DNA of 64,000 nt. Origin: Azolla caroliniana (lineage: Eukaryota > Plantae > Polypodiophyta). The translations under genes were made by a program, and so were the position numbers. Each line of letters starts with the position of its first letter. Within the stretch, counting starts at the first letter, position 1. Shown piece after piece: positions 852-58,033 of the stretch. Location of the stretch: the NCBI GenBank assembly GCA_043228905.1, contig JBHGNT010000017.1, positions 16,368,001-16,432,000 on the forward strand, given 5' to 3'. The notes under the pieces were generated by a model that saw only the letters and a program-made list of their open reading frames with translations, did no database searches and was not told the origin of the DNA.

Positions 852-856
852 ATATC

Positions 857-1159
857 GCGCGTTGGCGAGGACGAAGTGCTGCAGCAGAACCGAGTGCCGG
901 TCTCTCTCTCTCTCCTCAAATCGTCGTTCTCTTCAGGTGTCGGGAGTTCGTTGACTCTGCTTCGTGGACAACCCGTGTGCTTCTAGCAGAGTCTCTCTCT
1001 CCTTCCCCTTTCCCCTCTTGTTTCTTCGAGTCGTGTGGTTGTCGTCGGTGTGCGTGAGTAGGACCCCGTGTCGGGTCCATTACCGGGTTGCCGATTGTAA
1101 GCTACTGACTATAGTAATCAGATTCCTATTTTTCTTGATCTTAGTCTCTCTATGTGTGC

Positions 1160-1190
<31 letters not shown>

Positions 1191-4100: not shown

Positions 4101-6412
4101 GTCGAGTGCCCCGTATTCAAATCGGTGGTTTACAGTGCCGAAGAAGAACGGCACGCTGCACTTCATTCAGGACCTACAACCGGTCAACAAGGTGACCATC
4201 TGGAATGCAGGAATCGGACCAACCATAGACGAGTTTGCGGAGGCCTTTGCTGGAAGGTCGATCTATTTGGTTGGTGACTTATACTTGGGGTACGACCAGT
4301 TCCAGCTAGCTGTGGAGAGCAGGGATATCACGACGATGCGAACTCCTCTTGGCTTGGTACGGATGTGTACCCTACCACAAGGCGGGACAAATTCGGTGGC
4401 ACATATGGTGAGCACAATGAACAAGGTGCTAAGGGACTGCATCCCGGATATCACCATGCCATTTTTGAACGACATCCCGATAAAGGGGTGTCCGATGGAT
4501 GATGCGGACGAGACTGTCGGGCTAGATGGATGCCGGAGGTTCGTCATGAACCACATCAATGACTGCGAGAAGGTGCTGCAGAGGGTCGAAAACGCACGAC
4601 TCACCTTCTCCGGAGAAAAATCGACGTTCGGGCAGTCGGAGATATTGGTGGTCGGGCACCTGTGCGGGCCCTACAGTAGGAAACCGTCTCCGGCAAAGGT
4701 AGAGGCCATCTCAGCGATGAGGGACGATTGTGGGTCGGTCACGGAGGTCCGCAGATTCTTGGCATGCGCGTTCTACCACATCTGGATTCCGCACTACGCG
4801 TATGTTGCGGAACCTCTCTACGGGCTATTGAAAAAAAGGTGTGGGTTCGAGTGGAGGACGGAGCACATGGAGTCGGTCCGGAGACTAAAGGGGGCGCTTA
4901 CGGTAGCGCCGGCCCTACGTAAAGCGGTTTACGGCAAGGGTGTCCCCATTTGCATAACGGTGGACATGAGCCTGACCGGGATCGGGTGGGTAATCAGTTA
5001 GGAGGACAAGGACGGCGTACGATTCCCGATCCGGTTTGGGGCGAAGGTATTGAGCAAGCGGCAGCGAGGATACGCCCAAGTTAAGCGCGAGCTTTGGGGT
5101 ATTGTTTCGGCAGTCAAGGCCGACATGGACTATCTGATAGGGACGGAGGTGATCATCGAGACGGACTGCCTGCCGATACTCGGCATGGTTTCCGGATGCG
5201 CGACGCTGGACCTAGCAATGCTCCGGTGGATAGCGTACATTAAGTCCTTGAACCTGGAGATACGGCACATCTCCGGAAAGGATAACGCCATGGCCGACAT
5301 GCTTTCGAAAGCAAGGTTCAACAACGAAAACGACATGGTTTCGGATGACGAAGAAGTCGGCGAGGACTTCTTCGGGTCGGCTAATGTGACGACGAAGGAA
5401 GGGGACACTCCGGCGCTTAACGAATTTGACGAAAGCAGGTACGACGGGGAGTGGCTCCAAATCGGGAGGTTCCTACGGACGATGATGCCGGACGCAGCAT
5501 GGACGAGAGAAGAGGCGAGCCGGGTACGGAAGAAGGCATACCGATTCTTCTTGCGGGACAAGTGCATATGGAGGCACTCTAAGAAGAGAAACGGCATCCC
5601 GCTCCGAGTAGTGACAAAGAAAGAAGAATAGGAGAAACTACAGGCAGCATTTCACGAGAGTCCCTAGGCCGGGCACCGCGGAACGTGGACCACGTTCGAG
5701 AAGCTGAAGGAGAAGTACTGGTGGTTGGGGCTATACCAGGACGTGCATCGGTTCGTAACGACTTGCGAAAGCTGTCAGATGCACTCCATAGTCTGACATC
5801 GGGACGAGCTACACCCGACCTACCCGTCTACAGTCCATTTCAAGTGGATGGTGGACTTGGTGACGATGCTGATGGGGGCAGGACAGATGCGATACCTGGT
5901 GCTTGCACGGGAAGACTTAACGAACCAGGTGGAAGGCCGTGCACTTCAGAACAGGACAACCGCGGCGGTATGCTGGTTCCTGATCGAAGAGGTAGTATGT
6001 CGGTACGGGTGCATCGGGAGGATCATGGCGGACCAGGGAGAGCTGGATGCATGGGAAGCTGAGGAGTTGTTCGACCGGCTAGGCGTCAAACTCTCCCTCA
6101 CTACGGCGTACAATCCGGAGGTGAACGGGAAGGTAGTGCTGAGAACTCGTCGTTCCTTATGTCTGACGCTCGGCCACAACCGAGATTCTTTTCATACACA
6201 GAAAAATAGGTAATGAAACGCGACACAAAGGGGAGAAATGGTACACAGGAGGTTTACGTGGAAAACCCCAAAATAAGGGAAAAACCACGGCAGCCCACAG
6301 GCTGCAAACTGTCACTATGTAGGAATATACAACAGTGAGTTCACTGAGGCAACGACCTCGTGCTCTCAGATCTTCACCACAGGCGGAGGTTAAAACAGAG
6401 GCAACGACCTCG

Positions 6413-6444
<32 letters not shown>

Positions 6445-6730
6445 CAGTTACGCGCTCTCGCTTCTTCTTGCACCAACAAGGAAGAATAACAACAACAGAA
6501 ACGACCCCACTAAAAGTTTGCCCTAAGTCATATTTATACTAATATGACTTTTCGGCTATTTACAAATGTAGCCTCGATGGGCTCTCAGAAACATATTTAC
6601 GAATATGTCTCTTCCTCCGGTTCATACCGGGCCTGCACCATCCGGCTCTCCGTAGTCGGGTACTCCCCATCCGGTTCATACCGGGCCTACACCATCCGGC
6701 TCTCCGTAGTCGGGTACTCCCCATCCGGTT
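857..6730 (+). mobile_element. Partial duplicate of gypsy element B (LTR remainder to 1251, PBS 1256-1273, gag-pro-pol) with the solo LTR E1 copy from 6137
   Basis: Same sequence as 11313-17186: gag CCHC, DHG protease, RT, RNase H and integrase fragments. Confidence 0.9.
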
Positions 6731-9303: not shown

Positions 9304-10479
9304 TTGAAGAAGTCCCTTTACGGACTGAAGCAAGCCCCACGTGCCTGGAATGCGAAAATCACGCATCGGCTGCGTCGGATGGGCTTTGCGATGTCAAAAT
9401 CGGACTCCTCGTTGTTCATTCGGAAAGGTCGACTTGGGCCAGTCAGTATTTTACTCTATGTTGATGACTTGGTCATCATCGGCGCTGACCTAGGTGAAAT
9501 CAACCGGCTCTAGCTTGCGGCATCATTCGACATGAAGGATCTTGGGGACCTTCATTACTTCCTCGGGATCGAAGTGATCCGCACCCCCGAAGGCATACTA
9601 ATCAGCCAACGTCATTATGCGCTGAATATGCTCTTCAAATTTGGGATAGCAGACTGTAAGTCCGTCTCGACTCCTCTGGATAGAACTGTCAAGCTTTGCC
9701 CCAATTCCGGCAAGTTTTGTGATCCGACAAGGTTCCGACAAGTTGTCGGAAGCCTTATCTACTTGACAATCACCCGACCCGATCTCAGTTATCCAGTCGG
9801 GGTGATCAGTCAGTTCATGGCGCGACCTACCAAGGAGCACCTTTAGTGTGCGCAACGCATACTGCGGTACGTAAGCGGCACTAAGGACCGGGGACTGCTA
9901 TATCGGACCGACACAGCCCCGCAGTTGGTCGGCTACACTGATGCCGACTGGGCCGACAATGTTGCTGATCGCCGATCCATGTCTGGATATGCGTTCTCTC
10001 TTGGGAGTGCCGCGATAGCGTGGAGTAGCAAGAAGCAGCCGACAGTTGCACTGTCGAGTACCGAAGCCGAGTATAGAGGAGCGGCTGTCGCAACATGCGA
10101 AGCCATATGGTTGAAGCAGCTACTTAAGGATCTGCAGGTGGAGGTGTCCGATCCAACGACGATCTACTGCGACAACCTCAGCAACATCCAACTCGCGAAG
10201 AACCCCGTCTTCCACGCACGGATCAAGCACATTGAGGTGCACTACCATTTTGTCCGTGAGCGTGTCCTTTTTGGTGAAGTCGAACTTCAATATGTTCCGA
10301 CGGATCGGCAGACCGCCGACATCTTCACCAAGTCTATTGGTTTGGGCAAGATGCGGCAATTTTCGGGTGCGCTTGGGTTGCGTCACCTCGATGTGCCGAA
10401 CTTGAGGGGGAGAAACGTTCCAGATAACCATGAAAGGGAGCATGAAAGGAGCGAAAAGAAAAAACCTCGGATCGGCTGA
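9304..10479 (+). pseudogene. Copia RT/RNase H remnant
   Basis: LYVDD, MKDLGDLHYFLGIEV, YTDADW, SSTEAEY, KHIEVHYHF; in-frame TAG stops. Confidence 0.9.
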
Positions 10480-11615
10480 AGAAGCCGAGAGCGGATCCGC
10501 GGAAGAATTCGAAAGCGGACCCAAGGGGAGTAGCAGAAAGAAAGAGCCAAAGCCAACCAGGCATGGGGGAGATGACGCCGTCAAGGGCGAGAAGACCGGA
10601 GCCGAGTTGGAGACAACCAACTCAGACGAGAGCAAAAACCGATCGGAGGTAGCCGAGTTAGTTCAGATGTTTAATTCAAATACATTGAATCAACTGAGGG
10701 CCAAGCAGAAAAGAAGGCAGCAGGAGAAGCGCCAACACCGCGACAGCAAGGGACCTGTGAAGGGCCGTGGGAGCAGACAAGTCGACCAGAAGGGTCGAAG
10801 CGCACGGAGTCGAATAGGCCGAGGAGCAAGGAGAAGCCGGAGCGTAGGTCCGGCAGAGCAAGCGAAACCTCAAGTTGAGCTTGAGGGGGAGTGTTGAGAG
10901 ACAAGCTCAACATTTGTGCGTAATACGATGCGTAACCAGTGCATAGACTGGGTGCATAAAACCGGTATGCAGACCGGTGTGAAGAAAGGCCGTATCGGTG
11001 CGTAGACCGAAAGGCCATTAGAAAGATATTCCTCGTAAGGAATAGTTTTGGGAGTAAGTGTCGAGGCTCATTTATGAGCAGTCAAGTACTGCCAGTACCT
11101 GTGTCAACCCATTGTCAGGGCTTGTATAAAAGTGCTCACTGAGCACATCCTATGTAGAGATTGAGTATTATTTTTCGAATTTAAGTTCTTGAGTTACTCT
11201 CTCTCTCAGTCTCTTCTGTGCGTACTGTGCAAACCTAAGCTTTCCATTAAACCTGCGTTTTCTGTTGTTCGGTTTTCCTATATTGCTTCCGCACGTCATT
11301 CTTTTCAATATCGCGCGTTGGCGAGGACGAAGTGCTGCAGCAGAACCGAGTGCCGGTCTCTCTCTCTCTCCTCAAATCGTCGTTCTCTTCAGGTGTCGGG
11401 AGTTCGTTGACTCTGCTTCGTGGACAACCCGTGTGCTTCTAGCAGAGTCTCTCTCTCCTTCCCCTTTCCCCTCTTGTTTCTTCGAGTCGTGTGGTTGTCG
11501 TCGGTGTGCGTGAGTAGGACCCCGTGTCGGGTCCATTACCGGGTTGCCGATTGTAAGCTACTGACTATAGTAATCAGATTCCTATTTTTCTTGATCTTAG
11601 TCTCTCTATGTGTGC

Positions 11616-11646
<31 letters not shown>

Positions 11647-11711
11647 CTTGGTCCGAGACCCCCGTGGTCCCGCCTCTTTCTCCACGCACACGTGTAACAA
11701 CGCGACATATT

Positions 11712-11729
11712 TGGTGAACCCGACGTGAA
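11712..11729 (+). promoter_or_regulatory. Primer binding site complementary to plant tRNA-Trp (element B)
   Basis: TGGTGAACCCGACGTGAA is the reverse complement of the 3' end of cytosolic tRNA-Trp (...TTCACGTCGGGTTCACCA, from recall), 4 nt after the LTR. Confidence 0.85.
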
Positions 11730-11751
11730 AGGGCGGCAAAGGAGTCGAAAG

Positions 11752-13800
11752 ATGAGGGGATCAGAGCTAGCAGAGGCAATGGCGGTAACCGTCGACCGGC
11801 TGGTGAGCGCTCGTGAGGGGACGGGTACCCTCGATAGAGCCATTGAATCGATCGTTGGCTCTATAGGCCGGTTCGGAGGGAAAGACGCCACAAGTTATTT
11901 GGAGGCTTACTGGGCCGAAATGATCATGAGGGATATCCCGGTGGACAGGCGGTTGTCCAGATTCCCTCGGGTGGTGATGCCGGGCATCCACGTGGAGGTG
12001 CTCGAGGTGTTGGCCGGATACCAGACTTGGGAGGAGTTCGAGCTGCAGCTCCTTGAGAAGTACGGGTTTGACGACTCGCTTCGGCTGTCGAGGCGGGACT
12101 TCATGGTGTGGGTGGAAAGCCCCGGAAAGGGGAGGAACACGTCAGTGCTCCTCCAGGAGTTCGAAAAACGGTTCGCATGGCTATCGACGCTGGACCGGAC
12201 GATGCTCAAAACGAGTCGAGTACTACTGTTTGTCAAGTCGGTGGACGTGCTGGACAGGGAAAAGGTGGGTCCCCTATTGGAAACGGACGAAGGGCTCACG
12301 GCACACTGGGCAGTGGTAAAACGGGTCTGCATCCGTTTCGACAAACTGCGTGATTGGAGCGACGGAAGCTCGTCGGGGTCAGGGCCGGTGCCGGGGAGGA
12401 GGCTCGAGGAGCCGGTATCGGTGCCGGCCGGTAGGAAGGAAGAGACCCGAATCTGGCCAGAGTCGGGGTCGGCATCGAACGACGTGGTCAGAGGCCCATC
12501 CAGAGGAGCGGCTCTGGAGGAGCTGACACAGATGGTGCGCGACTTGCAGATCGCACAAGCCCGGAGAGACAGTGGTGAACAACCTCGCGATCGGAGGCCG
12601 CCGGTTGGGCAGCGGTGCATGTGGTGTGACGCGATCGGTCACATTCAGAAGGATTGCGCGGATTTCGCCGACGCGCTCAGGACTAACGCGGTGTACCTTT
12701 GGAACGGGTGGGTGCACGCGAGCAAGACCTAGAGAGCCCTAGAACTTATTACAGAGCGCGACGAAATTAAGAGGTTGATGGAAGAGGCCGCGGCACGGCA
12801 TGTTGAAGCCGTTAACTACTCAGTGTCGGCGGGAATTCAGGTCGGGGGTGACGAGACCCGGAAGGCGAAGGACTCCGGATTCTGGCCGCTAGTGCTAGAA
12901 GGCCTCTCCGGAGTTCGGCTGAAGAAGGAAGAGGTGGACCGCGTGGAACAGCAGGTTCAGGAGGTCACCGGTTGGGACGATCCGGTCGAAGAGAAAACGG
13001 GCTTCGTAGAAGCCGCTTGCCAAAACTACGAGGTTCTGGTGGAGGACTAACGGGCAGGAAAGGCTGGAGGGGTCGGTCCCCCGTAGAGGTATGAGACCCG
13101 GTTTGGACCGAAACCGACCGGTGCCGGCAACCCAGGTGCGCCGGATGGAAAGAAGCAGGTGAGGTTTCGGTTGAGCACCAAAATCGAAAGGACTACAGAC
13201 CTGCGAAAGGTCCTGGAGGAACGTATCCTCGACAGTAAAGTGGAGCTGTTGTTGCGGGAGGTGCTGGGAATCGCCAAGAGGGAGTTCCACGACTCTATCG
13301 TAGACTTAGTGAAGCGGAAGAGGCTCTCGACGAAGCCGGAACCGGAGAAGCCGGTGGAGGTGCGGACCACGCACTTGGAAGATGCAGCGCTAGAAGATGA
13401 GTTGGCGGGAAGCCACTACACGAAGCCGCATTGGGCTAGGGCAACTACGGAAACCCCTGTACGGATCGGCAACATTCTGGAACCGGTGGTGGCATTGGTA
13501 GACCATGGATCCGAAATCAACCTGATGTCCATGGATTTCTACAAGAGGGGTAAATGGCCAATCAACACCAAGCACGGCTGGAAGATATGGGCAACGATGC
13601 GCGCCACGGAAGAACTACATGGGGCCTGTCTGAACGTACAGGTGAAAATCGGCGATGTCGAGATCGACTAGCACTTCTTCGTGCAGGAGATGTCCTCGCA
13701 TCCGGTTATACTAGGAGAGCCATACATCACGGCAGCATGGATGGAGACCAAGGTGTTGGACAACGGTTCGGCCTATGCAAGAGTCAAGAGCCAGGACGGG
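11752..13800 (+). pseudogene. Element B gag-protease (disrupted)
   Basis: CCHC knuckle CMWCDAIGHIQKDC; protease LVDHGSEINL; several in-frame stops. Confidence 0.85.
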
Positions 13801-16592
13801 CACCCCGGAAAAACCACACAAATGTACAGTAGAGAAGAAGAGTTGTACCATAGGTAGGAAATTTTGGTTCTCCGAAAATGGAGGTGGTACTATAGCCATT
13901 GTTAGCGGCCGGGAGAGGAAACGAGCGGAGGAGCGCCTCAAGGGATGCAGAGTCCTCTCCCCCGACGAAGAAATTAGCGGCGCCGTGGAGGCGGCGTCTT
14001 TTGACGACACCTTGGGCGAGTTGCGAAAGGTGATTGGTCAAGACCTTAGAGAAGACCAGACTGTTTCGGTTGGTTCGATGGGAATGTACGAAGTCATCGC
14101 GGACTTCGGGGAAAAGATCGGGTCGGATCGGATGGCTCGCGTGGATACAAAGTACAAGAATGTGGACCAGAAGGTGAGGCCAGTCGCGGCACCCTTGCCG
14201 AAGGGTAGCGAGGAGCGGATAAAAGGGGTCGCGTCGGACCCGAGTTTACGGAATCCGGCTGGCATAGGGCACCGGTTCACTGACATAACGCTACGGGAGC
14301 TCAAGGTTGGTGGGGGTGGCTTCCTACTGCCGGTGGAGGAGAACAAGTTTCGGAGAATGCTCAGAAGGCATGGGAAAGCCTTCGCGTTCTCGCCGGAGGA
14401 GATCGGGTGCGTGGACCCGACGGTCTTCGAACCGATGGTGATCTTCACGGTACCGCATGTACCGTGGAATCTCAAACCGATTCCGGTGCCAAGAGCTCAC
14501 ATCCCGAAGTTGATGGAGCTTCTGAAGCAAAAGGTGGAGATGGGCATCCTCGAACCGTCGAGTGCCCCGTATTCAAATCGGTGGTTTACAGTGCCGAAGA
14601 AGAACGGCACGCTGCACTTCATTCAGGACCTACAACCGGTCAACAAGGTGACCATCTGGAATGCAGGAATCGGACCAACCATAGACGAGTTTGCGGAGGC
14701 CTTTGCTGGAAGGTCGATCTATTTGGTTGGTGACTTATACTTGGGGTACGACCAGTTCCAGCTAGCTGTGGAGAGCAGGGATATCACGACGATGCGAACT
14801 CCTCTTGGCTTGGTACGGATGTGTACCCTACCACAAGGCGGGACAAATTCGGTGGCACATATGGTGAGCACAATGAACAAGGTGCTAAGGGACTGCATCC
14901 CGGATATCACCATGCCATTTTTGAACGACATCCCGATAAAGGGGTGTCCGATGGATGATGCGGACGAGACTGTCGGGCTAGATGGATGCCGGAGGTTCGT
15001 CATGAACCACATCAATGACTGCGAGAAGGTGCTGCAGAGGGTCGAAAACGCACGACTCACCTTCTCCGGAGAAAAATCGACGTTCGGGCAGTCGGAGATA
15101 TTGGTGGTCGGGCACCTGTGCGGGCCCTACAGTAGGAAACCGTCTCCGGCAAAGGTAGAGGCCATCTCAGCGATGAGGGACGATTGTGGGTCGGTCACGG
15201 AGGTCCGCAGATTCTTGGCATGCGCGTTCTACCACATCTGGATTCCGCACTACGCGTATGTTGCGGAACCTCTCTACGGGCTATTGAAAAAAAGGTGTGG
15301 GTTCGAGTGGAGGACGGAGCACATGGAGTCGGTCCGGAGACTAAAGGGGGCGCTTACGGTAGCGCCGGCCCTACGTAAAGCGGTTTACGGCAAGGGTGTC
15401 CCCATTTGCATAACGGTGGACATGAGCCTGACCGGGATCGGGTGGGTAATCAGTTAGGAGGACAAGGACGGCGTACGATTCCCGATCCGGTTTGGGGCGA
15501 AGGTATTGAGCAAGCGGCAGCGAGGATACGCCCAAGTTAAGCGCGAGCTTTGGGGTATTGTTTCGGCAGTCAAGGCCGACATGGACTATCTGATAGGGAC
15601 GGAGGTGATCATCGAGACGGACTGCCTGCCGATACTCGGCATGGTTTCCGGATGCGCGACGCTGGACCTAGCAATGCTCCGGTGGATAGCGTACATTAAG
15701 TCCTTGAACCTGGAGATACGGCACATCTCCGGAAAGGATAACGCCATGGCCGACATGCTTTCGAAAGCAAGGTTCAACAACGAAAACGACATGGTTTCGG
15801 ATGACGAAGAAGTCGGCGAGGACTTCTTCGGGTCGGCTAATGTGACGACGAAGGAAGGGGACACTCCGGCGCTTAACGAATTTGACGAAAGCAGGTACGA
15901 CGGGGAGTGGCTCCAAATCGGGAGGTTCCTACGGACGATGATGCCGGACGCAGCATGGACGAGAGAAGAGGCGAGCCGGGTACGGAAGAAGGCATACCGA
16001 TTCTTCTTGCGGGACAAGTGCATATGGAGGCACTCTAAGAAGAGAAACGGCATCCCGCTCCGAGTAGTGACAAAGAAAGAAGAATAGGAGAAACTACAGG
16101 CAGCATTTCACGAGAGTCCCTAGGCCGGGCACCGCGGAACGTGGACCACGTTCGAGAAGCTGAAGGAGAAGTACTGGTGGTTGGGGCTATACCAGGACGT
16201 GCATCGGTTCGTAACGACTTGCGAAAGCTGTCAGATGCACTCCATAGTCTGACATCGGGACGAGCTACACCCGACCTACCCGTCTACAGTCCATTTCAAG
16301 TGGATGGTGGACTTGGTGACGATGCTGATGGGGGCAGGACAGATGCGATACCTGGTGCTTGCACGGGAAGACTTAACGAACCAGGTGGAAGGCCGTGCAC
16401 TTCAGAACAGGACAACCGCGGCGGTATGCTGGTTCCTGATCGAAGAGGTAGTATGTCGGTACGGGTGCATCGGGAGGATCATGGCGGACCAGGGAGAGCT
16501 GGATGCATGGGAAGCTGAGGAGTTGTTCGACCGGCTAGGCGTCAAACTCTCCCTCACTACGGCGTACAATCCGGAGGTGAACGGGAAGGTAG

Positions 16593-16868
16593 TGCTGAGA
16601 ACTCGTCGTTCCTTATGTCTGACGCTCGGCCACAACCGAGATTCTTTTCATACACAGAAAAATAGGTAATGAAACGCGACACAAAGGGGAGAAATGGTAC
16701 ACAGGAGGTTTACGTGGAAAACCCCAAAATAAGGGAAAAACCACGGCAGCCCACAGGCTGCAAACTGTCACTATGTAGGAATATACAACAGTGAGTTCAC
16801 TGAGGCAACGACCTCGTGCTCTCAGATCTTCACCACAGGCGGAGGTTAAAACAGAGGCAACGACCTCG

Positions 16869-16900
<32 letters not shown>

Positions 16901-17375
16901 CAGTTACGCGCTCTCGCTTCTTCTTGCACCAACAAGGAAGAATAACAACAACAGAAACGACCCCACTAAAAGTTTGCCCTAAGTCATATTTATACTAATA
17001 TGACTTTTCGGCTATTTACAAATGTAGCCTCGATGGGCTCTCAGAAACATATTTACGAATATGTCTCTTCCTCCGGTTCATACCGGGCCTGCACCATCCG
17101 GCTCTCCGTAGTCGGGTACTCCCCATCCGGTTCATACCGGGCCTACACCATCCGGCTCTCCGTAGTCGGGTACTCCCCATCCGGTTCATACCGGGCCTAC
17201 ACCATTCAGCTCTCCGTAGTCGGTTACTCCCCATCCGGTTCATACTGGGCCTACACCATTCGGCTCTCCGTAGTCGGGTACTCCCCATCCGGTTCATACC
17301 GTTTCGGCCTCGGCTGAGTTTGTTCGTCGGCACTGCTCTTCTCCCTTCCCATCCGGAGGGACCTGTCTCCCAACA
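16593..17375 (-). mobile_element. Solo LTR E1 (related to the LTRs of copia element I)
   Basis: TG...CA ends; TSD GGTAG (16588-16592 / 17376-17380); removal restores NGKVEHGHG of B integrase. Confidence 0.92.
17073..17300. repeat. 54-bp tandem array (about 4.2 units) in LTR E1
   Basis: Unit CCGGTTCATACCGGGCCTACACCATCCGGCTCTCCGTAGTCGGGTACTCCCCAT. Confidence 0.92.
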
Positions 17376-20300: not shown

Positions 20301-21180
20301 GTCATGCGTGAGGTATTTTGGCATCATGGCCTCCTAGACAGTATCATCAGTGAATGAGGACCTCAATTTGTCTCCAAATTTTGGAAGCATCTCTTTAAGA
20401 TGCTCAAGGTCTCTTGCAACCTCTCCTCCGGCTACCATCCCCAGACCGATGGGCAGGCGGAACGAACAAATCAAACGTTGGAACAATACCTTTGGTGTTT
20501 TTCGAGTTACCGAGTTACCAACAGGATGATTGGGCTGATATTCTCCACTTTGCGGAGTGTTCTTAAAATAACGTTATTCACTCCTCAACTCGAGGCTACG
20601 CAAGGTTCAGACAGATCTATCTACTCATCTTCGTCATGGTCAACACACATAGAAGACTTATGCGGATCGTCATCAGCTTCCTTCCTCTTTTGCCATCAGA
20701 GATCAAGTATGGCTCTTATGTCGTCACATGAAGACTACTCGACCATGCAACAAATTGGACTATCGACGACTCGGTCCTTTCCGTATTACGGGTAAGATTA
20801 ATGATGTCACGTTCCGCCTTGATCTTCCTCCGCACTTTCAGATACATCCGGTCTTCCATAGTTCTCTTCTTGAACCTTATAAGGCCAACACTATTCCCAA
20901 TCGTTTTACACCACCGCCGCCCTTGCTTGAGTTGGACGCCAGCTCGAAGTATGAAGTTGTTGTTGTCCCCGACACCAAGTTCGTTCGCAACAAACTTTAT
21001 TATTTGGTCGATTGGCTTAGCTATAGTCCGAGTGAACGCACTTGGGAACCCGTCGAGCATGTCGCCAATGCTCAGGATCTTCTTGCTGATTTCCACTGAC
21101 AGTATCCAGACAAACCCGGTCCTCAATCAACGCCGACTCGTTACACTCGTTGTCTTAAGGGGGGGATAGTGTCATGATAT

Positions 21181-21240
21181 GGCAAGACTCGAACTCATGA
21201 CCTTATGTTATATGGGTTGAGCTCTTGACCATTACACTAT
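21181..21240 (-). promoter_or_regulatory. tRNA-like Pol III A/B-box module, antisense, in U3 of A's LTR
   Basis: Minus strand TAGTGTAATGG...AAGGTCATGAGTTCGAGTC with tRNA-type spacing. Confidence 0.6.
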
Positions 21241-21473
21241 CTATTGTAATACGTAGGATGTTATTTTCATTTAAGTTTTACTATAGAAAATTAATGTATA
21301 TTCTAGATTTCTCTAGAACATTCTAGAAGCTTCAGGACTACTCCTGAGAGCACTATAAAAGGAGGCACAAGGCATTATTTCGAACCAAATCGGTTCAACG
21401 CCAGTCTTAAGCCTCATAGCTATTTTGTACTTACTCTTCATATAATATATAATCTGTTATCATCATCATCTCT

Positions 21474-22077
21474 TGTTAGGAAACAGGTCACTCCGGATGG
21501 GAAGTGAGAAGGCCTGGTGAGAACTGAATGACGAGTGCCCGGCAAGAGCCGGATGATGCAGGCCTGGTGAGGAGTGCTCACTGGATGAAGGGACATATTC
21601 GTAAATATATTTTTGAGAGTCCATTGGGGCTATATTTGTAAATATATTTTTGAGAGTCCATTGGGGCTATATTTGTAAATATCCGAAAAGTCATATTAGT
21701 ATAAATATGACTTAGGGCAAACTTAGTGTAGAGGTGTTGTCATTCTTGTTGGTGCAAGATTTGAGTGCAACTGTGTACAGAGAGAGAGTGTGTGTGTGTG
21801 AGAGATGAAGAGGACGTTGTCTCTGTTGTAATCGCCGCCTGTGGCGAAGACAGTGAACAAGAGGTCGTTGCCTCTGTGTTCATCTATTGTACATTGTAAC
21901 ATAGTGATAGTTTGCAGTCTATGGACTGCCGTGGTTTTTTCCCGTGTTTGGGTTTTCCACGTAAACATCATGTGTACTCTTCTCTTTACTGTGTCGTGCG
22001 TACATTACCCGTTTTCTGTGTTTGATCCTAGACTCGGTTGTGGCCGAGCGTTGTTGGCGGAGCATGTAGTCCTTTCA
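21474..22077 (+). mobile_element. Solo LTR E (copia I-related) inserted in A's 3' LTR
   Basis: TGTTAGG...CTTTCA; TSD TCTCT; homologous to the reverse complement of E1/E2; internal 37-bp tandem duplication near 21601-21680. Confidence 0.88.
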
Positions 22078-22208
22078 TCTCTCTCTCTCTCTCTCTCCTT
22101 TTCTCTCTTCCTCTCTCGGGAGTCTTACACAATCCCATCCTCTTAGTACTAATAGTACTTCCCTTCTCAATTACTAATTCTCTCTATGTTTTAGTACTAT
22201 TCCTGACA

Positions 22209-23840
22209 CAATTGAGCAATGTGAATACAACATGGTCAATTGTACTAACTCAGTTCTGGTACATCAAATCGTGCCACGCCACGATCATTTGCAATAGGAT
22301 GAGCGACCACCACCACGGAATAGAGACGTTGAATGACCCTGGGAGGATGATCAGCTTCATCGCAACGATGGCTACCACCCTGAACCAGATCTCTATCACT
22401 AGGATCAACACTATCGACCGAAGCCACCATACTATCACAATCATCCACGCTATTATTGTGACGAGCACTATTATCCGAAGGATCACTATTACCGGGATGA
22501 CTATGACTAAGAAGACTATTACGAACCACGATATCCACGGCACGATCGACAGCCCCGACATCATAATCGCGGCTTCCGACCTTCAAGGAATAATCGACGA
22601 TCCTTTGACAAACCTCGCCGAGACCCTCTGCGCACTGATAATCGGCAACCTCCCCAATCCGAGCCTTGTGAAAACCCATTGTAGTGCTATTCCCTAGTGG
22701 CTCGATAAGAATCAACTACAACATACAACACAGGCTCAATTCGAGCAAGGAGAGCCCAGCAACTCGGCCACAGTAACATGCTTCAACTGTAATCAAGACA
22801 GGTCACTACGCCACTCAATGCGCGACCAACAATCGAGGTAAAGCACCGACCGTAAACATGATTACGATAGAGGTCCAACAGGTCACCACCTGAAGTCAAG
22901 CCCAACAATCACAATGGGAGATTCAAGATGAGGTTCAACAAGCGACTAAGAAATGGATCAAATCAGCAAATCACACCAACACTGATCGAATGCACACCGA
23001 AATCAAAGAAATCAGTCTCATCCCATTGCATCCCTCTTCACCTACCGAACCACCCAATTTAGCAAGCGCTCACCAGCTGCAAAATGTCCATGCCTTTGCA
23101 TAAACTGTTGCAGTTGCTTCCGCACTTCAAGGGTACAGTCCAATCTCTCACTATCGACCAAGAACCAACTACCCTACCCGTACACCTCATGGCACCAAAA
23201 CCCGGACCACCACTAATGGATTCCCAGAACCCGGCGGTCAAACTTGTCATCAAAGTCTGCGAGGTCCACAAGTGCATTATCGATGGCGGATCAGGAGTGA
23301 ATGTTATCAGTGAGACAACATGCCACAACCTAGGCATCACGCAAGGGAACCATGTCTGTTTTGGCTTCGAATGGTGGATAGACGATCGGTTCGACTAATA
23401 GGGTTAATCCGAAATCTTGATTTCATCCTCAGTTGGCACATCTTCATAGTGTCCACAGTAATCTTACGACTCGACGCTCCTGGCACTTACCTGTTGTTAC
23501 TCGCACGTCCATGGCTACGAACAACTAATATCAAACAACACTGGCAGCGCAACATGATATCATTTTGCAGTGGGAAAATCAAAGTTCGGGTTGTCATGGA
23601 GAAACGCATTACGACGCCTCCCGACAACATCTCGTTGTATGCTAAAGGCCAGATGGAATCCTTCCCGGACGAGCATCCCACGATTGTCCCCCTATTCAAA
23701 ATCGACGTTCTCATGGCCGTAGAGCCATATCCATGGGAAATTGCGACAACAGACCACACAATTCCACACAACCCCGACCCGCAATCAATCTAGGAGTTAC
23801 GACACGCCCGCGATGCGCTCCAACACGAATTAACCATCTC
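22209..23840 (+). mobile_element. Element K: fragment of an older gypsy (gag-protease), outermost host of A and D
   Basis: Frameshifted CCHC (TCFNCNQ..HYATQC near 22777); protease CIIDGGSGVNVI and LLLARPWL; no LTRs in view. Confidence 0.75.
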
Positions 23841-23856
23841 TATCATGATATGACAA

Positions 23857-23910
23857 GACTCGAACCAATGACCTTATGTTACATGGGTCAAGCTCTTGAC
23901 CATTAGACTA
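23857..23910 (-). promoter_or_regulatory. tRNA-like Pol III A/B-box module, antisense, in U3 of D's 5' LTR
   Basis: Minus strand TAGTCTAATGG, 33 nt, GGTTCGAGTC; T8-G53 distance 45 nt. Confidence 0.62.
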
Positions 23911-24284
23911 TATGTTGTAATACGAAAGATATTATTTTCATTTAAGTTTTACTATAGAAAATTGATGTATATTCCAAATTTCTCTGGAACATTATAGAAA
24001 CTTCAGGAGTACTCTTGAGAACACTATAAAAGGAGGCACAAGGCATTATTTTGAACCAAATCGGTTCAACGCCAACCTTAAGCCTCCTAGCTACTATTGT
24101 ATATTATCTTAATATAATATATATCTTTTGTTATCATCATTCTCTCTCTCTCACTCACTCTTTCCTTCTCTCGAGAGTTCTACACCTCCCTTAGTACTAA
24201 TCCTCATCTTTTAGTACTAATTCCTTCTCTGTATTAGTACTGTTCCTGACAATACTTCTGTATCTTAGTATTGTTCCTGACAGT

Positions 24285-24296
24285 TTGAACTGATTT
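24285..24296 (+). promoter_or_regulatory. Self-priming PBS of D
   Basis: TTGAACTGATTT pairs 11/12 with AAATCGGTTCAA (24058-24069), 33 bp after TATAAAA; no TGG tRNA PBS. Confidence 0.75.
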
Positions 24297-27200: not shown

Positions 27201-27809
27201 AACCCCTGAAACTGTCCTGCGAGAGGTATGTCGGCATCAATAGCATCACTGGTGATCGCGGACCCCAATTCGTCTCGAAATTCTGGAAGCATCTCTTCAA
27301 AATGCTCAAGGTCATTTGTAATCTCTAATCTCTCATCCGTCTATCACCCGCAAATAGACGAACAAGCAAAAAGAACGAATCAAACACTGGAATTATATCT
27401 TCGATGTTTTCTAAGCTATCAACAAGATAATTGGGCGGATATTCTCCACTTTGTAGAATTTACGTTGTCGTGTGAATCTTCACACACTATGTAAAAAAAA
27501 TAATGAAATAATTATTTTAGATTAGGTTAGTAGCTTGTTATAGAAATATGGATGTACTCAAGAGCTTCAAAACACATTTTACTACATACAAAATAGACAA
27601 CTACATATCAAGTTAGGTGGACATGAACCTTGAGGAGATAGGGAAAATAGAATTTTGAAGTATCCCACATAGATAGGAAACATAAGGCCCTGGCTATATA
27701 AGCACATTGAGATCCCTCATTTTTCATTTGTGCTAAAAGCACTTTGGCCACTTTGTCTAGATGGATGAATGTGGCCAAGTTCCCAAAAACCGACTGGCAA
27801 TAAAATGGA

Positions 27810-33289: not shown

Positions 33290-34530
33290 TGTCATGAAGA
33301 TCCGTCACTACGCGCGGATCGTGAGGCGGAACCGCCGGGGTTCTGGACCGGAAGGATTCAAAGTCGGTACAAGCTTTGGCGCAAGCTTTGGCAAGAAAGT
33401 ACTTAAGATAGATTGGGAAAGAGAGAAGTTGAGATTAAACGATTGAGAGAGATTGATTGAACTTTTATCTTTGGATTTAAGAAACAAGTTACACGATCAA
33501 TTTAATAACGAATTTCTTCTTCTTAATTTCATAACAAAAAAAAACGTGTTTTTTTCTCCTCCCCCTTCCTTCTTTTATAGATGCTCTCATGCATATGATG
33601 CATGTGAGGGTACAAGACATGCATAAAATGCATGCTTGCCATTTGGCGCTTATGTATTACATGTGGTGCATGATAACCATGTCACTCATTTTAGCTCTCA
33701 TGTGTGAGAATTTACACGTAAAAGTACAATGATAGAAATATAAATTCAACTAGATGGCATGGCTTAATGGTAAGCCAATTGACTGCTAACTCAGAGGTGC
33801 AAGGTTCGAATCCTTACTTGCCCTCCTTGTATATGTATATATGTATATATATTTATATATTTATTTATCTATTCATCGGACGCCGGTTCACCGGATGCCG
33901 CCGGTTACCGGTGCCTCGCCGGATGCCGTCGTCTCACCGGCACCGGATGCCGCCGGATGCCGTCACCTCGTCGTTGGCGGTTGCTAAACCGATTGTCGTC
34001 GGATGCCGGTGTCTTACTGGCGCCGGATGCCGCAGATTACCGGTGCCTCGCCGAATGCCGTCGTCTCACCAGCGCCGGATGTCGTCACCTCGCCGCCGCC
34101 GGATGCCGGTGTCTCACTGGCGCCGGATCACCGGCTCCATCGTCGGTCCAGTTTTGGTTGGCCAAAACCCTTTACGAGTAGCTAGCCCACCTCCACTCTT
34201 AGTTCAAGTTACCTTGAACTCTCTATGCTCCACACATAGACACAAAGATAATAGCTTTTGCTCTACCTTATATATGATGAGAGCCGTATTTGTTGTGCCT
34301 ATGTGGGATATCTCACAATTTTCTCTTTTCCTTTCACAAACTTTATACCCTCATATCTTGACATTTAGTTATTCGTTTCTCGTGTAATAAAGTGCATTCG
34401 AAACCTCCATCATTTTGTACTTAGATATTTATTTAAAATGTTATCTTCACAATTATTGTATTATGTGATTCATACTCGATTTTGTATGTTTTATGGGATT
34501 TTCACACTATTGCCGAAAATCTTCACGACA
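33290..34530 (+). mobile_element. Probable solo LTR of the B/F-type lineage inside the TIR element
   Basis: TGTCATGAAGAT...ATCTTCACGACA (11/12 inverted). Start resembles B's LTR; left flank ACGT, right flank TCAT does not match. Confidence 0.65.
33753..33824 (+). pseudogene. tRNA-derived sequence (Asn-like frame, loop CTGCTAA) within the LTR
   Basis: A box TGGCTTAATGG, D stem GGCTT/AAGCC, B box GGTTCGAATCC, T stem AAGG/CCTT; imperfect acceptor and anticodon stems. Confidence 0.7.
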
Positions 34531-37116: not shown

Positions 37117-37914
37117 TGACGAGAACTCAAGGCTCCTTATGTCCAATGCTCGGCCACAACCGAGATTCTTTTCATACACAAAAAACGGGAAATAAAACAC
37201 GACAAGAAGAGGGAAAGAATACACAGGAGGTTTACGTGGAAAACCCCAAAACTAGGGGAAAAACCACGGCAGCCCACAGGCTGCAAACTGTCACTATGTG
37301 GGAATATACAACAGTGAGTTCACTGAGGCACCGACCTCGTGCTCACAAATCTTTGCCACAGGCGGCGGTTACAACAGAGGCAACGACCTCTTTCTCTCTC
37401 TCTCTCTCTCTCTCTGTACAGTTACGCACACTAATCTCGTGTAATACAGAAAAATGACAACCACCACTCCTAAAGTTTGCCCTAAGTCATATTTATACTA
37501 ATATGACTTTTCGGCTATTTACAAATGTAGCCTCGATGGGCTCTCAGAAACATATTTACGAATATGTCTCTTCATCCGGTTCTCACCGGGTCTATATCAT
37601 CCGGCTCTCCGTAGCCGGGTACTCCTCATCCGGTTCATACCGAGCCTGCACCATCCGACTCTCCGTAGCCGAGTACTCCTCATCCGGTTCATACCGGGCC
37701 TGCACCATCCGGCTCTCCGTAGCCGAGTACTCCTCATCCGGTTCATACCAGGCCTGCACCATCCGGCTCTCCGTAGCCGAGTACTCCTCATCCGGTTCAT
37801 ACCGGGCCTGCACCATCCGGCTCTTCGTAGCCGGGTCCTCCTCATACGGTTTCGGCCTTGGTCTATCAGCACTGTTCTTCTCCCTTCCCATCCAGAGGGA
37901 CCTGTCTCCCAACA
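37117..37914 (-). mobile_element. Solo LTR E2 in F gag, with five 54-bp units
   Basis: TG...CA; TSD GAAGG (37112-37116 / 37915-37919); close homolog of E1. Confidence 0.92.
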
Positions 37915-40900
37915 GAAGGTGGGTTTTGGCCGGCGGTCTTCGAGTGTGAGAAGAAAGGCAAAATTGATTCAGAAGATCTAAAACATGCTGATCAGAATGT
38001 GCGACGAGTTACCAGATGGTCAAATCTAGTCGACGAAAACACAAGCTTTGCGGAGGTAGTGTGCGACAACTATGAAGCTCATGTCGAAGAGAAGAGGAAA
38101 ACAACCGGTGAAGAAGATGGCACGTCAAAGCGTCCCAACACGAGGAACAAAGGGAAAGAAGGGCAAGTCCCACCTACGCCACGAAAAGAGGTTGGAGAAA
38201 CAAGCATGAAGCCCAGTGGATCGAGCCAATCTGCTCGGATGGAAGTCGAAGAATCAACGAAGAAAGGAAAAGAATGAGCGGCACCGACTTACAAGTTAAG
38301 ATTGGGCATAGAACAAACGACTGACTTGTGGAAGGTCCTTGAGTAGAAGGTTTTAGTCAGTCATGTCGACCTTACTTTGAGAGAATTACTTGGGATCGCG
38401 AAGGAGTTCCATGATACTATCGTGGACCTTATTAAAAGGAAGCGGCAACAATTTGATGAAGAGGAGGTGAAAACAAATGTCATAACCATGGAAAGATCGG
38501 AAGAGGAGGAAGAAGAAGAAGTGGTGGCAGATAGCCATTACTCTCGACCTCATTGGGCAAGAGCGACAACAGAGACGCCAGTGAAAATCGGGGAGAAGAA
38601 AGAAACCGTGGTAGCCTTGATTGATCATGGCTCGGAGATCAACCTCATGTCGACCAAGTTCTACAAGAAAGGAAGATGGCCGATTAATACAAACCACGGA
38701 TGGAAGATTCGAGCGGCTATGAAGGCTACGGAGGACTTGTACGGAGCTTGCCCCAATGATAAAGTCACGATCAGGGATGTGGAGATTGATCAACACTTCT
38801 TCGTGCAAGACTCGGCTTCGCATCTTGTCATCCTAGGACAACCGTATATAACATCATCCCGGATGGAGACCAAGGTGTTCGATAACAGAGCAGCCTTCGC
38901 GTGTGTCAAGAGTCTTGATAATAAAAGATCTGTTCAATTCCTAACGGTGCGAGCTAATCACGAAAGGAACCGAGATAGCCTTGGAGGCGAATCCTAGGAT
39001 TTATAAAGCGGACTATTGAAGTATGGGGCACAAATAGTCCGAGCAATCATAAGTCCCCATAAGGAAGCAGAGTGCGTGGATTGCAAGGAGAAGCAACATG
39101 CATCACACCTAGCGGTGCATGCAAACTAAGACTACTCAACAATAAGGAAAAGTGTTAGATACAAGACTTTGAGGAGGTGTTGAAAGAAGAAAGCATAATC
39201 GAAGAAGAAGAATTTGTGTCTTATATTCTGGAGCAAGCCTCATTTAACGACACCATCGGCGAAATCGAGGAAATCGTGGACTTGAGCTATCCTCACCATC
39301 AACATGTGATTTCGGTTAACTCCGTCAACATGTACGCTATCATCGAGGCATCTTGATAGAGGAAGCCGAAGTCAACACAAAATATAAAACTGTGGATAGG
39401 AAGGTCAAGCCAGTTGTAGTTCCGCTACCGGAAGATACCTGGCAAAAGATGAAGGAAGTTGCAAAAGATCCAAGCTTAAGGAACCCAAATACAATTGGTC
39501 ACGTCTTCACTGAAGAGACGAAGGGGAAGCTATGAGTTGGAAGGGAGGATTTCCTCCTTCCGGAAGAGGAGCAAATGTTCCACGAAATGCTTGAAAGACA
39601 TGGGAAAGCTTTCGCATTTTTCCCACAAGAAATCGGATGTGCTAATCCAAGGATGGTAGAACCGATGGTGATCTTTATGGTACCGCATGTGCCTTGGAAT
39701 TTGAAACCAATACCGGTTCCGAGAGCACACCTACCGAAGTTGATCGAGCTCTTAAAGGAGAAGGTGAGGATGGGAATTTTGGAACCGTCGAACGCTCCTT
39801 ATTCTAATAGATGGTTCACGGTGCCAAAGAAGAATGGATCGTTGTGATTCATTCAAGATCTTCAACCTTTCAACAAGGTGACAATTCGGAATACTGGAAT
39901 CGGTCCAAGTGTGGATGAATTTGCCGAGGCGTTTGTGGGCCGGTCCATCTACTCCATTGGTGATCTCTACTCTGGCTACGATCAATTCTAGTTGGCAGTC
40001 GACAATCGTGACATTACAACCATAAGAACTCCTATCGGCTTGGTGCAGATGTGTACCTTACCTCAAGGTGCGACGAACTCGGTGGCTCCTATAATGAACG
40101 CCATGAACAAGGTCTTGAAGGATTGCATCCCGGATATCACGATGCCATTCTTAGATGATATCCCGATAAAAGGATGTTCGGATGAAGAGAAGGATGAATC
40201 AAAAGATAAGGATGGATGTAGAAAGTTCTTCGTGGATCATATGAAAGATTGCTAGAAGGTGCTCCAAAGGCTCGAAGATGCGAATTTGACATTTTCGGGA
40301 GAAAAATCCGCATTCGGGCAACCGGAGATCTTGGTGGTAGGTCACTTGTGTGGAGCATACGGTCGGAAGCCTTCGCCATCCAAGGTGAATGCAATCCAAG
40401 ACATGAAAGAAGAATGCGTAACCCAAACAGAGGTTCGAAGGTTCCTTGGAGCATGCACATTTTATCATATTTGGATTCCACACTACGCCCACATTGCTCA
40501 GCCATTATATGGTCTACTAAAGAAGAAGCGGATGTTCGAATGGACGAGCGAGCATACAATCGCCATCCGAAAGCTGAAGAAATTATTGATGGAGGCACCT
40601 GCATTACGGAAAGCGGACTATTCATACGGCAAGCCCATTTTCGTGATCGTGGATACTAGTCCAATCGGAATCGGATGGGTTATCAACCAAGAAGATGAAG
40701 ATTGCAACCGATATGCAATTCGGTTTGGCGTGAAAGTGTTAAGTGACAGGCAAAGAAGGTATGCCCAAGTGAAGAGGGAGCTATGGGGAATCGTCTCGGC
40801 AATCAAATCTCATCGTGATTACCTTATTGGAGCAGACGTCATAATTGAGACAGATTGTCTACCAATTTTGGGTATGATATCTGGTTGTAATACACCAGAT

Positions 40901-43241
40901 ATTGCCATGTTGCGTTAGATTGCATATATCAAATCACTCAACCCGGAGATCCGTCATGTAGCTGGGAAGCGTAATGTCGTTGCAGACATACTATCACAAG
41001 CGAGATATGACGGAGAAGAAGATCGACATTCTGATGGAGAGGATGTTGGCTTGGATTTCTTTACAAGTTCCTACGCTCAGGTGCTGACTACTTTCATAGA
41101 AGAGGATTACGAAGGCGAATTCGTGGAGATCGGGAAATACTTGAGTTCTCTCCAAAAAGATGAATCATGGTCGACGGAAGACTTCCATCGAATTCGGAAG
41201 AAGGCATACAAGTATTTCCTTAAGGATGGAGTTCTTTGGAGGCATGCAAAAAAGAAGAATGGGACTCCAATGAGAGTTGTCTGCAAGCTAGAAGACCGAC
41301 AAAAACTAATGTCTGAATTTCATGATAGTGTTTTTGTAGGCCATCGAGGAATATGGGCTACATTTGTGAAGCTTAAGGAGAAATATTGGTGGCTGGGCAT
41401 TTACAAAGATGTAGCAGCTTATGTGGAAACATGTAAGGAATGTCAGATGTTTTCGAATATTCGCCATCGAGATGAACTTCATCCGACTTACCCGTTGGCT
41501 ATGCATTACAAGTGGATGGTGGACATCGTGAGGACGCCAATGGGGCGATGGCAGATGAAGTATCTTGTGCTCGCGAGAGAGGATCTTACCAATCAAGTTG
41601 AAGGGCGAGCATTGAGACCTAAGGAGACATCATCGGTATGCAAATTCCTTCTTGAAGATGTTATTTGCAAATATGGATGCGTTGGCAAGATAGTGGTTGA
41701 TAGAGGCGAGCTAGACGCCAATGAAGCTAGAGAATTCTTCTCTAGGATGGGAATCAAATTATCTCTTACCATGGCGTATAATCTGGAAGCAAATGGGAAA
41801 GTGGAACGTGGACATGGACCGATTGTGAAGGCTCTAGTGAAAGCTTGCCATGGGAAAATAGGAGAATGGCCGCGTCTATTGACATTTTCACTATGGGCTG
41901 ACAAGACTACTCATAGCACGGTGACGGGATACATGCCGGCAGAGCTCATATTCGGACAAAAGCCGATAATGCATGTAGAACAAAGTATTATTTCATGGTT
42001 TGCATTGCCATGGCAAGATGAGATAAGTAGAGAAGATCTTCTAGCATTCAGGATTCATCAGTTGGAGCGGAATTTGGAAGATATAGAAGTGGCTAAAGTG
42101 TGACTAAAGAATGCAAGGCTAAAGAACAAGAAAGACTTCGATAAACGACATCGACTTCGCCCGAGGAAAATCGTTGAAGGAGATTGGGTGCTAGTCTATG
42201 AAAGTAGCCTAGACAACCAACATAGTACGGCTCGAAAATTTTCACAACAATGGTTTGGACCATATGTGGTGAAGAAAGTGGAAGAAAATGCAACATATCA
42301 TTTAGTAGAATTGGATGGTACACCACTTGCCTTACCAATTGCAGGTAAAAGAATCAAGATCTTCAAGAGAAGAGATAGAATAGAAATTGGATTCGAAGCT
42401 TTTGACAATTTTGTCTTGGGCATCAATGAAAAAGTATAGTAAACAAAAGTGGAGCCTCACCGAAATTGGCACATACCGGTGGATGTGCAGGTTTGGTGGG
42501 GGCGAATGTCATGTGAATCTTCACACACTATGTAAAAAATAATGAAATAATTATTTTAGATTAGATTAGTAGCTTGTTATAGAAATATGGATGTACTCAA
42601 GAGCTTCAAAACACATTTTACTACATACAAAATAGACAACTACATATCAAGTTAGGTGGACATGAAGCTTGAGGAGATAGGGAAAATAGAATTTTGAAGT
42701 ATCCCACATAGATAGGAAACTTAAGGCCCTAGCTATATAAGCACATTGAGATCAGGCGAAACTGGCGACCGGACGAGGTTGGACGCGAACCGGACGGATT
42801 GGATGGGCAGCAATCGAGACAGACGGATGATTGGATCATGTGGCTAATTAAAGTAAAGTAAAGTAAAGTAAAGTAAAGGTCATGTGGATGGTCGCATGCA
42901 ACTAAAAGAAAAAGCCATGCAACTAAAAAGGGATGCAACTAAAAGTAAAGGCCATGCGACTAAAAGTGGACATGCAAGTAACATGGAAAGCTATGATCAA
43001 GGGAGAACTCCATATAAAATTCCATTTTTTTTCCTACACTCATTCTCTTTCCATATTTTTATTTATTTTTCCTTCTTAGCTCCCTTATCTTATGGAAGCC
43101 ATATCTCTTGTATAACCTAATTCTAATTTTCCCTACGGAAGCTATAACTCTCATAAACCCTAATTTTCCCTACGGAAGCTATATCTCTCAAAATCTAAAA
43201 TCTCTTAGAAAAGCCAAAAACCCTAAATTTCTATTGAATCC

Positions 43242-43517: not shown

Positions 43518-44445
43518 AATCCTTCTATAGAGGATTGTTTGGAGAGGCTACGCAAGATACATGCAGACTTATCTACTCATTTATAACAAGCCCAACAAAC
43601 ACAGAAGGATTATGTGGATCGTCATCGGCTTCCATCTAGTTTTAACATTGGAGATAGGGTATGGATATTATGTCAACACATCAAGACTACTCGACCATGC
43701 GAGAAATTGGACTATCGACGATTAGGTCCTTTTTGTATTATCGGAAAAATTAATGATGTTGCTTTTCATCTTGATCTACCTTCACAACTACGGATACATC
43801 CGGTTTTTCATAGTTCTCTTCTCGAACCGTATCATGACAACACTATTCGGAATCGTATTATACCACCTCCACCCTTGATCAAGCTTGAAGCAGGACCAGA
43901 GAACGAAGTAGGTGCCATCCTTGATTCCAAGATTGTTCGCAACAAGCTCTACTATTTGGTCAATTGGCTAGGCTATAGTCCAAGTGAGCGTAGTTGGGAA
44001 CCAGTCGAGAATATGGTAAATGCTCGAGCTCTTGTTGAGGACTTTTATCGACGATATCCCAACAAGCCAGGACCTCCATCTAAGACGACTCGTGACAATC
44101 ATTGTCTTAAGGGGGGGGGGGGGAGGGTAGTGTCATGATATAGCATGATATAGCTTCCAAAGGATTTGAACCCATGACCTTGTGGCACATGAGTGGAGCC
44201 TTACCATTTAGCTATAAGTTCTAATACAAAGAATATTATTTCCATTTATTATTTCACTTAGGAAATCCATGTATATTCTAGATTTCTCTGGAACATTCTA
44301 AAAATGTCAAGAATATTCTTAAAGCCACTATAAAAAGAGGCACATGGCATTATCAAGAACTAAATCGATTCAACGCCAATCTTAAGCCTCCTAGTTGTTC
44401 TTGTATCTTTCTTCTTATAATATAATATACTTCTTGTTGTCATCA

Positions 44446-53475: not shown

Positions 53476-53525
<50 letters not shown>

Positions 53526-57970: not shown

Positions 57971-58033
<63 letters not shown>

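Follow-up and report, generated by a model that had tools for sequence, protein, structure and literature searches.

In one chromovirus clade, all scorable LTRs carry at their outer tip an antisense pair of tRNA-type promoter boxes, an A box and a B box; the clade includes elements of the 64-kb stretch of fern DNA analysed here (the window). Their distribution and conservation mark a real, clade-defining, tRNA-derived promoter module of autonomous chromoviruses that is apparently under selection.

Module copies and their elements in the window

A textbook scan for an A box paired with a B box returned four pairs in the 64-kb window, at 23857-23910, 21186-21239 and 44163-44214 on the minus strand and at 33760-33812 on the plus strand. 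In 100 composition-matched Markov simulations, chance produced 0.13 pairs on average and never more than one. All four pairs scored 19/19 on a 19-point promoter score composed of invariant tRNA promoter positions and set before scoring. In 567,688 bases of loci without the module, a score of at least 18 occurred once, in a tRNA-like sequence of locus L053, and scores of at least 16 occurred at 0.029 per 150 nt.

The minus-strand strings quoted in the original prediction were recovered at their positions. The prediction had placed the module in all four of its LTRs; three of them carry it at 19/19, while the LTR of the divergent family G keeps only a good B box (total score 16, with 6/9 in the A part and 10/10 in the B part). 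Taken alone, G is a weak case because of the background at that score. The pair at 33760-33812 is an extra copy that the prediction did not include. The nine remaining LTR-like stretches of the window all had maximum scores of 16 or less over 260-820 nt, which is within background. The features are as follows.

23841-24282, plus strand: decayed chromovirus 5' LTR (D in the original prediction), ~442 nt; starts TA, ends TGACA
23857-23865, minus strand: B box, tRNA positions 53-61; its end is 16 nt away from the LTR tip
23870-23874, minus strand: variable-loop remnant, tRNA positions 44-48, with conservation equal to the B box
23900-23910, minus strand: A box, tRNA positions 8-19, from box scan and column alignment
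23921-23970, minus strand: stretch of 82% AT on the upstream side of the A box, putative TFIIIB landing site
24025-24030, plus strand: TATA box of a putative Pol II promoter, back-to-back with the module
24056-24071, plus strand: self-priming partner, an LTR stretch complementary to the primer-binding site (10/13 ungapped)
24283-24296, plus strand: self-priming type primer-binding site, without the TGG start of a tRNA-type site
21170-22208 (21170-21473 + 22083-22208), plus strand: element A 3' LTR, following PPT and chromodomain
21186-21239, minus strand: module copy in the element A 3' LTR, 19/19
21474-22077: foreign solo LTR splitting the element A 3' LTR, with TCTCT target duplication
33290-33845, minus strand: truncated LTR-like repeat with module, AT-rich stretch, TATA-like motif and TGACA end
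33760-33812, plus strand (antisense to the 33290-33845 repeat): fifth module copy, 19/19; Rfam tRNA 15.9 bits
44131-44480, plus strand: 3' LTR after a chromodomain ORF, truncated at a CT repeat
44163-44214, minus strand: module copy in the 44131 LTR, 19/19; Rfam tRNA 14.1 bits
62056-62425, plus strand: LTR of the divergent family G, with TATA at 62273 and a self-priming type primer-binding site
62081-62133, minus strand: degenerate module of G, B part 10/10 and A part 6/9

The Pfam domains surrounding the module LTRs (gag, RT, RNase H, integrase, Tf2-type SH3 and Chromo) assign these LTRs to decayed chromoviruses, and their order is that of chromoviruses among Ty3/gypsy elements: gag, RT-RH-IN and a C-terminal chromodomain. 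Downstream of the LTR at 23841-24282, gag is followed by RT-RH. The family of this LTR starts with TG and this copy with TA; the depth of family contigs steps up at ~23840 in all four runs. No pol is linked to the repeat at 33290-33845, and its clade is therefore assigned by layout only. The 23841 and 44131 LTRs had been taken as the 5' and 3' LTRs of a single element D. They probably represent two subfamilies and not the pair of one insertion, because the 23841 LTR is closer to the element A 3' LTR (88% identity) than to the 44131 LTR (80%).

According to Neumann et al., Tcn1 elements are marked by self-priming and an aromatic-cage chromodomain (PMC6317226). Primer-binding sites in D 5', G, L005 and L011 are of the self-priming type, with 10-11 of 13 positions complementary and no tRNA primer-binding site; these counts are of ungapped complement, in place of the published criterion of a blastn match of at least 10 bp. 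The chromodomains give Pfam Chromo and HP1/CDY-like matches. The published accounts of Tcn1 share with the window elements an apparently classical-type chromodomain, a self-priming type primer-binding site, TG...CA LTRs of ~370-440 bp and hosts outside the seed plants; they report Tcn1 from mosses, lycophytes and fungi, and the excerpts of them at hand do not mention a tRNA-like LTR module (PMC2864245, PMC3350952, PMC6317226). As described in part of the same literature, the PCR survey by Novikova et al. yielded no fern Tcn1 (PMC2864245). The name "Tcn1-like" used in the original prediction suits the primer-binding site and apparently the chromodomain type; aromatic residues that may form the cage are visible in the alignment, the first of them being altered in the 43587 ORF. 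We would call the window elements Tcn1-like at most, as the trees contain no named references and the fern clades Mordred and Galahad are also possible.

The window as a whole is a nest of LTR retrotransposons surrounding a 4-coumarate-CoA-ligase-like ORF (acyl-CoA synthetase 5), an uninterrupted frame of 289 aa at 48003-48872 whose best named relatives are from Adiantum (73-74% identity, vs about 60% for seed plants), which makes a fern the most likely host. The solo LTR at 21474-22077 belongs to another family; it entered the CT repeat of the element A 3' LTR in reverse orientation and is flanked by a 5-nt target duplication. The 44131 LTR likewise ends abruptly at its CT repeat. A 249-nt repeat (27466-27714 and 42507-42753, 97%) brackets ~15 kb of other DNA separating the two halves assigned to element D. 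Positions 1-6730 and 10457-17186 form a direct repeat of 6,730 nt with 100% identity, 10,456 nt apart, which may be a very recent duplication or an assembly artefact. Additionally, a Copia element occupies 53189-58286 on the minus strand, with ~600-nt LTRs that are 91% identical to each other and ~74% similar to the Gypsy-associated family LTRs at 6141-6730 and 37121-37915.

A further motif occurs in module LTRs. The element A 3' LTR has a perfect four-unit GAA-nn-TTC array at 21316-21333, between the module and the TATA box; the D 5' copy of the array (23988-24005) has one mismatch at 23994 that is missing from nearly all family contigs. A longer array is found at positions ~145-235 of the L002 LTR, and the array is also present in L007. 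We take GAA-nn-TTC to be the heat-shock-element consensus, and the LTR family may be heat-inducible.

Distribution among chromovirus LTRs

An SH3-chromodomain alignment search yielded 117 loci. Scoring covered the 49 in which a PPT could be recognised and the LTR extended for 85 nt or more; the other 68 comprise 57 without a PPT or with too little LTR and 11 with an early-ending protein match. The tip module was found in 9 of the 49 scorable LTRs, at 16-19/19 and always on the minus strand; the distance between the end of the B box and the LTR tip was 15-48 nt. The remaining 40 LTRs scored 15 or less at the tip, and none of them reached 17 over up to 800 nt from the LTR start. The cut-off of 16 was picked after the scores were seen and carries the background of 0.029 per 150 nt given above. 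Orientation was the same at all nine loci and in the four window LTRs with linked coding sequence, in support of the original proposal that U3 of chromodomain Ty3/gypsy LTRs bears at its tip a tRNA-derived sequence in antisense orientation.

The loci carrying the module group together with the window elements. In the chromodomain tree they stand on one side of a branch holding 11 of 50 rows (support 88/72), 10 of which are joined at 98/97; L097 was too short to be included. Similarly, one side of a branch in the RNase H-integrase tree holds them in 7 of 36 rows (SH-aLRT 94), and the sister group in that tree, L009/L013/L019, is without the module. Identity to L005 in this region ranges from 59 to 74% across five lineages with linked pol. 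From these relationships we infer a single capture of a tRNA gene or SINE head. A module common to chromoviruses in general was ruled out, with 0 of 40 LTRs outside the clade carrying it.

Absence from intact copies had been named as a test of the prediction. Instead, the module adjoins unbroken pol ORFs of 1044-1183 aa at L003 (1115 aa), L004 (1044 aa) and L005 (1183 aa, with gag as well), on contigs with 86-308x coverage by contig name. The window family is very abundant, with 1,708-4,956 contigs per run in all four runs, from three organisms. All nine positive loci come from one accession series with seven assemblies. Among 37 distant relatives from the viral and prokaryote collections, the module was not found.

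Two observations concern the locus set itself. L086-L117 are eukaryotic chromovirus integrase-chromodomain sequences in 32 contigs of prokaryote assemblies, nearly all short, and most likely represent binning contamination. Across all 117 loci, ARAGORN gave a single, unrelated match, a tRNA-Tyr(ATA) at 14147-14219 of the fungal-like L053; by eye it resembles the tRNA part of the element Helenus-1_SMo, and it is possibly a Helenus-type repeat.

Conservation of the boxes and loss of the tRNA fold

In an unguided MAFFT alignment of 14 LTR tips, the invariant and near-invariant columns coincide with tRNA promoter and loop positions. The comparison of seven lineages (D 5', L002, L003, L004, L005, L011 and the 33760 copy) gave a mean pairwise identity of 0.85 in the B box, 0.84 in the variable loop and 0.55 at A-box positions 8-15, vs 0.31/0.28 in the acceptor arm, 0.33 in the anticodon arm and 0.36 in the upstream flank. 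The eight invariant positions averaged 0.96 vs 0.31 in the arms, a contrast matched in 0 of 100,000 permutations, with column numbering anchored on T8 and G53 that is partly circular and somewhat favours the boxes. The distance from T8 to G53 was 43-45 nt in 12 of 13 copies. The claim that boxes and spacing persist while the DNA between them diverges is thereby borne out, and purifying selection on the module appears very likely.

Conservation is incomplete in some copies. G10 of the A box departs from the consensus, being T, in 5 of 13, including L003 and L004 with their intact ORFs, and a broken B-box core is seen in 5 of 14, namely four low-coverage contigs and L003 (96x, intact pol, no C61). 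Within the window family (four runs, positions 23867-23914), no variant of at least 3% occurs at T8, A14, A15, G18, G19, A21 or the variable loop; the degenerate positions 9, 11 and 12 vary by up to 48%, 71% and 42%, and G10 by up to 11%. Most anticodon-arm positions are invariant too, and the B box lies outside this range. None of the 40 variants listed out of 104 falls in the B box, which is a weak observation.

It is highly improbable that a SINE or tRNA insertion left the module in an ancestral LTR and that it has since been inherited as a neutral remnant. The single origin on both trees, the broken boxes and the sister clade without the module would fit such a history, but neutral decay would not spare the boxes yet randomise the arms, and the boxes are kept although blastn aligns LTRs between lineages only in short patches. 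The box-versus-arm permutation test largely refutes this explanation.

The LTR start had been read as a tRNA body, a description that holds for the A and B boxes and does not extend to a structural tRNA. ARAGORN made zero tRNA calls in the window, and none of the 46 weak Rfam matches across the entire window was to a tRNA. The Rfam tRNA model gave no match at 23820-23960 and, at three other copies (44159-44214, 33756-33823 and L005), only 14-16 bits vs a gathering score of 29. Stem positions were paired in 36 of 91 cases for the acceptor and 25 of 70 for the anticodon stem, vs 41% expected; the D stem (33/52) and T stem (50/70) were somewhat above chance, being partly box positions. RNAalifold found a consensus fold of 0 pairs, and covariation of the 15:48 pair was not seen. 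A functional tRNA or tRNA-like RNA fold was ruled out by the unpaired stems, the missing consensus fold and the 15:48 pair.

The state of the stems also bears on a possible role in the genomic RNA. In HIV-1, pairing of U3-R with tRNA has reportedly been proposed to help minus-strand transfer or packaging. In the fern elements, the orientation makes the plus-strand genomic RNA complementary to tRNA loops, and U3 lies within the RNA 3' end, so that this stretch could pair with a host tRNA and aid either process. Pairing with a given tRNA should, however, keep the stems, and the acceptor and anticodon arms are at background; the primer-binding site is of the self-priming type, and a tRNA primer would be unneeded. 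We regard this explanation as improbable.

The layout of a type-2 Pol III promoter, an A box and a B box at tRNA-like spacing, is present in the 19/19 window copies and in L005. Upstream AT content was 76-93% in 13 of 13 copies vs 55-67% in the module, two of these values being over short stretches and the comparison being without a matched negative control. This retention of A box, B box, spacing and AT-rich upstream stretch would suit a working Pol III promoter, and TFIIIC-only sites (ETC) are thought to need less. The RNA of such a promoter could matter in two ways: from the 3' LTR it would run antisense over the PPT and chromodomain coding region, perhaps self-limiting copy number or acting as a small-RNA decoy, and from the 5' LTR it would run outward into host DNA. 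Foamy viruses do produce Pol III RNAs from their LTR U3, as the portion of that report at hand describes (PMC3993851). Yet T8 and the first T4 are 54-1080 nt apart; this T4 still falls within the LTR tip in 3 of 12 copies, and in the others it lies beyond the tip (78-1080 nt from T8). A common oligo-T terminator was not found among the first-T4 positions of the module copies. The conserved fold is absent as well, and a 5'-LTR transcript would change with every insertion site. The outward or antisense RNA envisaged in the original prediction is thus disfavoured as a defined transcript because the terminator is not shared, and we consider a Pol III promoter whose RNA matters unlikely.

The variable-loop pentamer lies outside the textbook A and B boxes and matches the B box in conservation (0.84, p 3e-5). 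This would suit tRNA-derived motifs co-opted for other DNA-binding proteins, either plus-strand Pol II activators or integration factors at the cDNA end, as would the loss of G10 and a position 15-48 nt from the cDNA tip. Against such co-option, which we judge rather unlikely and somewhat more so than a Pol III product, the conserved columns are tRNA promoter positions flanking a spacing of 43-45 nt that a single activator site would not need, and the distance to the tip varies threefold. Taken together, the module is, on the evidence of its sequence, a retained DNA signal and not a tRNA, because the boxes and variable loop persist while the arms fall to ~0.3 and are unpaired, with no shared terminator.

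A candidate boundary role and its relatives

Promoter positions and spacing that are kept while the fold is lost point to a protein reading the DNA. In tRNA genes, TFIIIC recognises the A and B boxes and positions TFIIIB on the upstream AT-rich region (PMC13578239, in part). Binding of TFIIIC to the module is probable. TFIIIC would dock on the antisense boxes at the LTR tip and set TFIIIB on the AT-rich stretch facing the element interior, where it would sit between module and Pol II TATA box. Because it faces outward, the module cannot serve to transcribe the element; the proposed effect would be a boundary, independent of any product, by which the neighbouring Pol II promoter stays usable once the element has landed in silent chromatin. 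We give an even chance that the module acts as a boundary or keeps chromatin open, and not through an RNA product. A self-carried boundary is favoured because, in the sections of the sources available, yeast TFIIIC sites are documented barriers, insulators and roadblocks (PMC4228148) and the type-I chromodomain of MAGGY directs to heterochromatin, to H3K9-methylated chromatin (PMC3350952), and because the chromodomain linked to the module resembles HP1/CDY-type readers. The sister clade L009/L013/L019, which manages without the module, counts against the boundary reading, as do the loss of G10 in the A box, the broken B cores and the strong conservation of the variable loop.

The likely working analogue is the yeast tDNA/ETC boundary, in which a TFIIIC site exerts product-independent effects next to an adjoining divergent Pol II promoter; those boundaries are fixed host loci with shown occupancy, whereas the fern module is carried by a mobile element and its occupancy is putative (PMC4228148, in part).

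Among LTR retroelements, the Cassandra TRIMs cited as precedent in the original prediction remain apt as plant LTRs, ferns included, with an internal Pol III promoter, but their promoter is of the 5S type, drives their own RNA and comes with terminators in a non-autonomous element (PMC10886601). The Helenus TRIMs (TRIMp3; Kojima 2024) are nearer. According to the parts of that paper at hand, they too contain tRNA-derived sequence within the LTRs with conservation centred on boxes A and B, are mostly non-functional as tRNA and, in the lycophyte family Helenus-1_SMo, keep the variable loop as well; unlike the fern elements, they are non-autonomous, 311-1263 bp long and mostly tRNA-primed (PMC10886601). 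In the Helenus consensus sequences compared there, the tRNA part reads in the sense direction and, as proposed, would drive transcription of the element; the paper expects Pol II promoters in autonomous partners, and its excerpts mention tRNA similarity in other Repbase LTRs without describing it (PMC10886601). The fern elements share the tRNA-derived A and B boxes inside the LTR and depart from Helenus in two defining respects. They have coding capacity (gag and full pol at L005, long pol ORFs at L003 and L004) in place of a non-autonomous structure, and the promoter is on the minus strand in 9 of 9 loci. Their module is antisense and at the U3 tip of ~5 kb gag-pol elements with a separate TATA box and a self-priming site.

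Simian foamy virus is also an autonomous LTR retroelement with Pol III boxes in U3 beside a Pol II promoter; its units form hairpins with oligo-T terminators and yield miRNAs, as far as the excerpted account goes (PMC3993851), whereas the fern module is an outward-facing tRNA remnant without a conserved hairpin or terminator. In the open-access literature searched, a description of an antisense tRNA-type promoter in fern chromovirus LTRs was not found. The new element would be the extension of tRNA-promoter LTRs from the miniature Helenus to autonomous elements, in the opposite orientation.

Module LTRs may mislead tRNA gene annotation in ferns, and they are a candidate explanation for the >7,500 tRNA calls reported for Azolla (PMC13578239). 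Elements that target silent chromatin must still be transcribed, and a captured tRNA promoter at the LTR edge is a concrete candidate answer to how they manage it. If TFIIIC binds, the LTRs of this abundant family could form a major class of TFIIIC sites in ferns. We tentatively suggest, as a possibility somewhat short of even, that heterochromatin-seeking autonomous fern chromoviruses carry their own tDNA-type insulator, such that each insertion would set outward TFIIIC sites at both LTR tips; these would shield the promoter against silencing and, in large fern genomes, add up to thousands of mobile boundaries.
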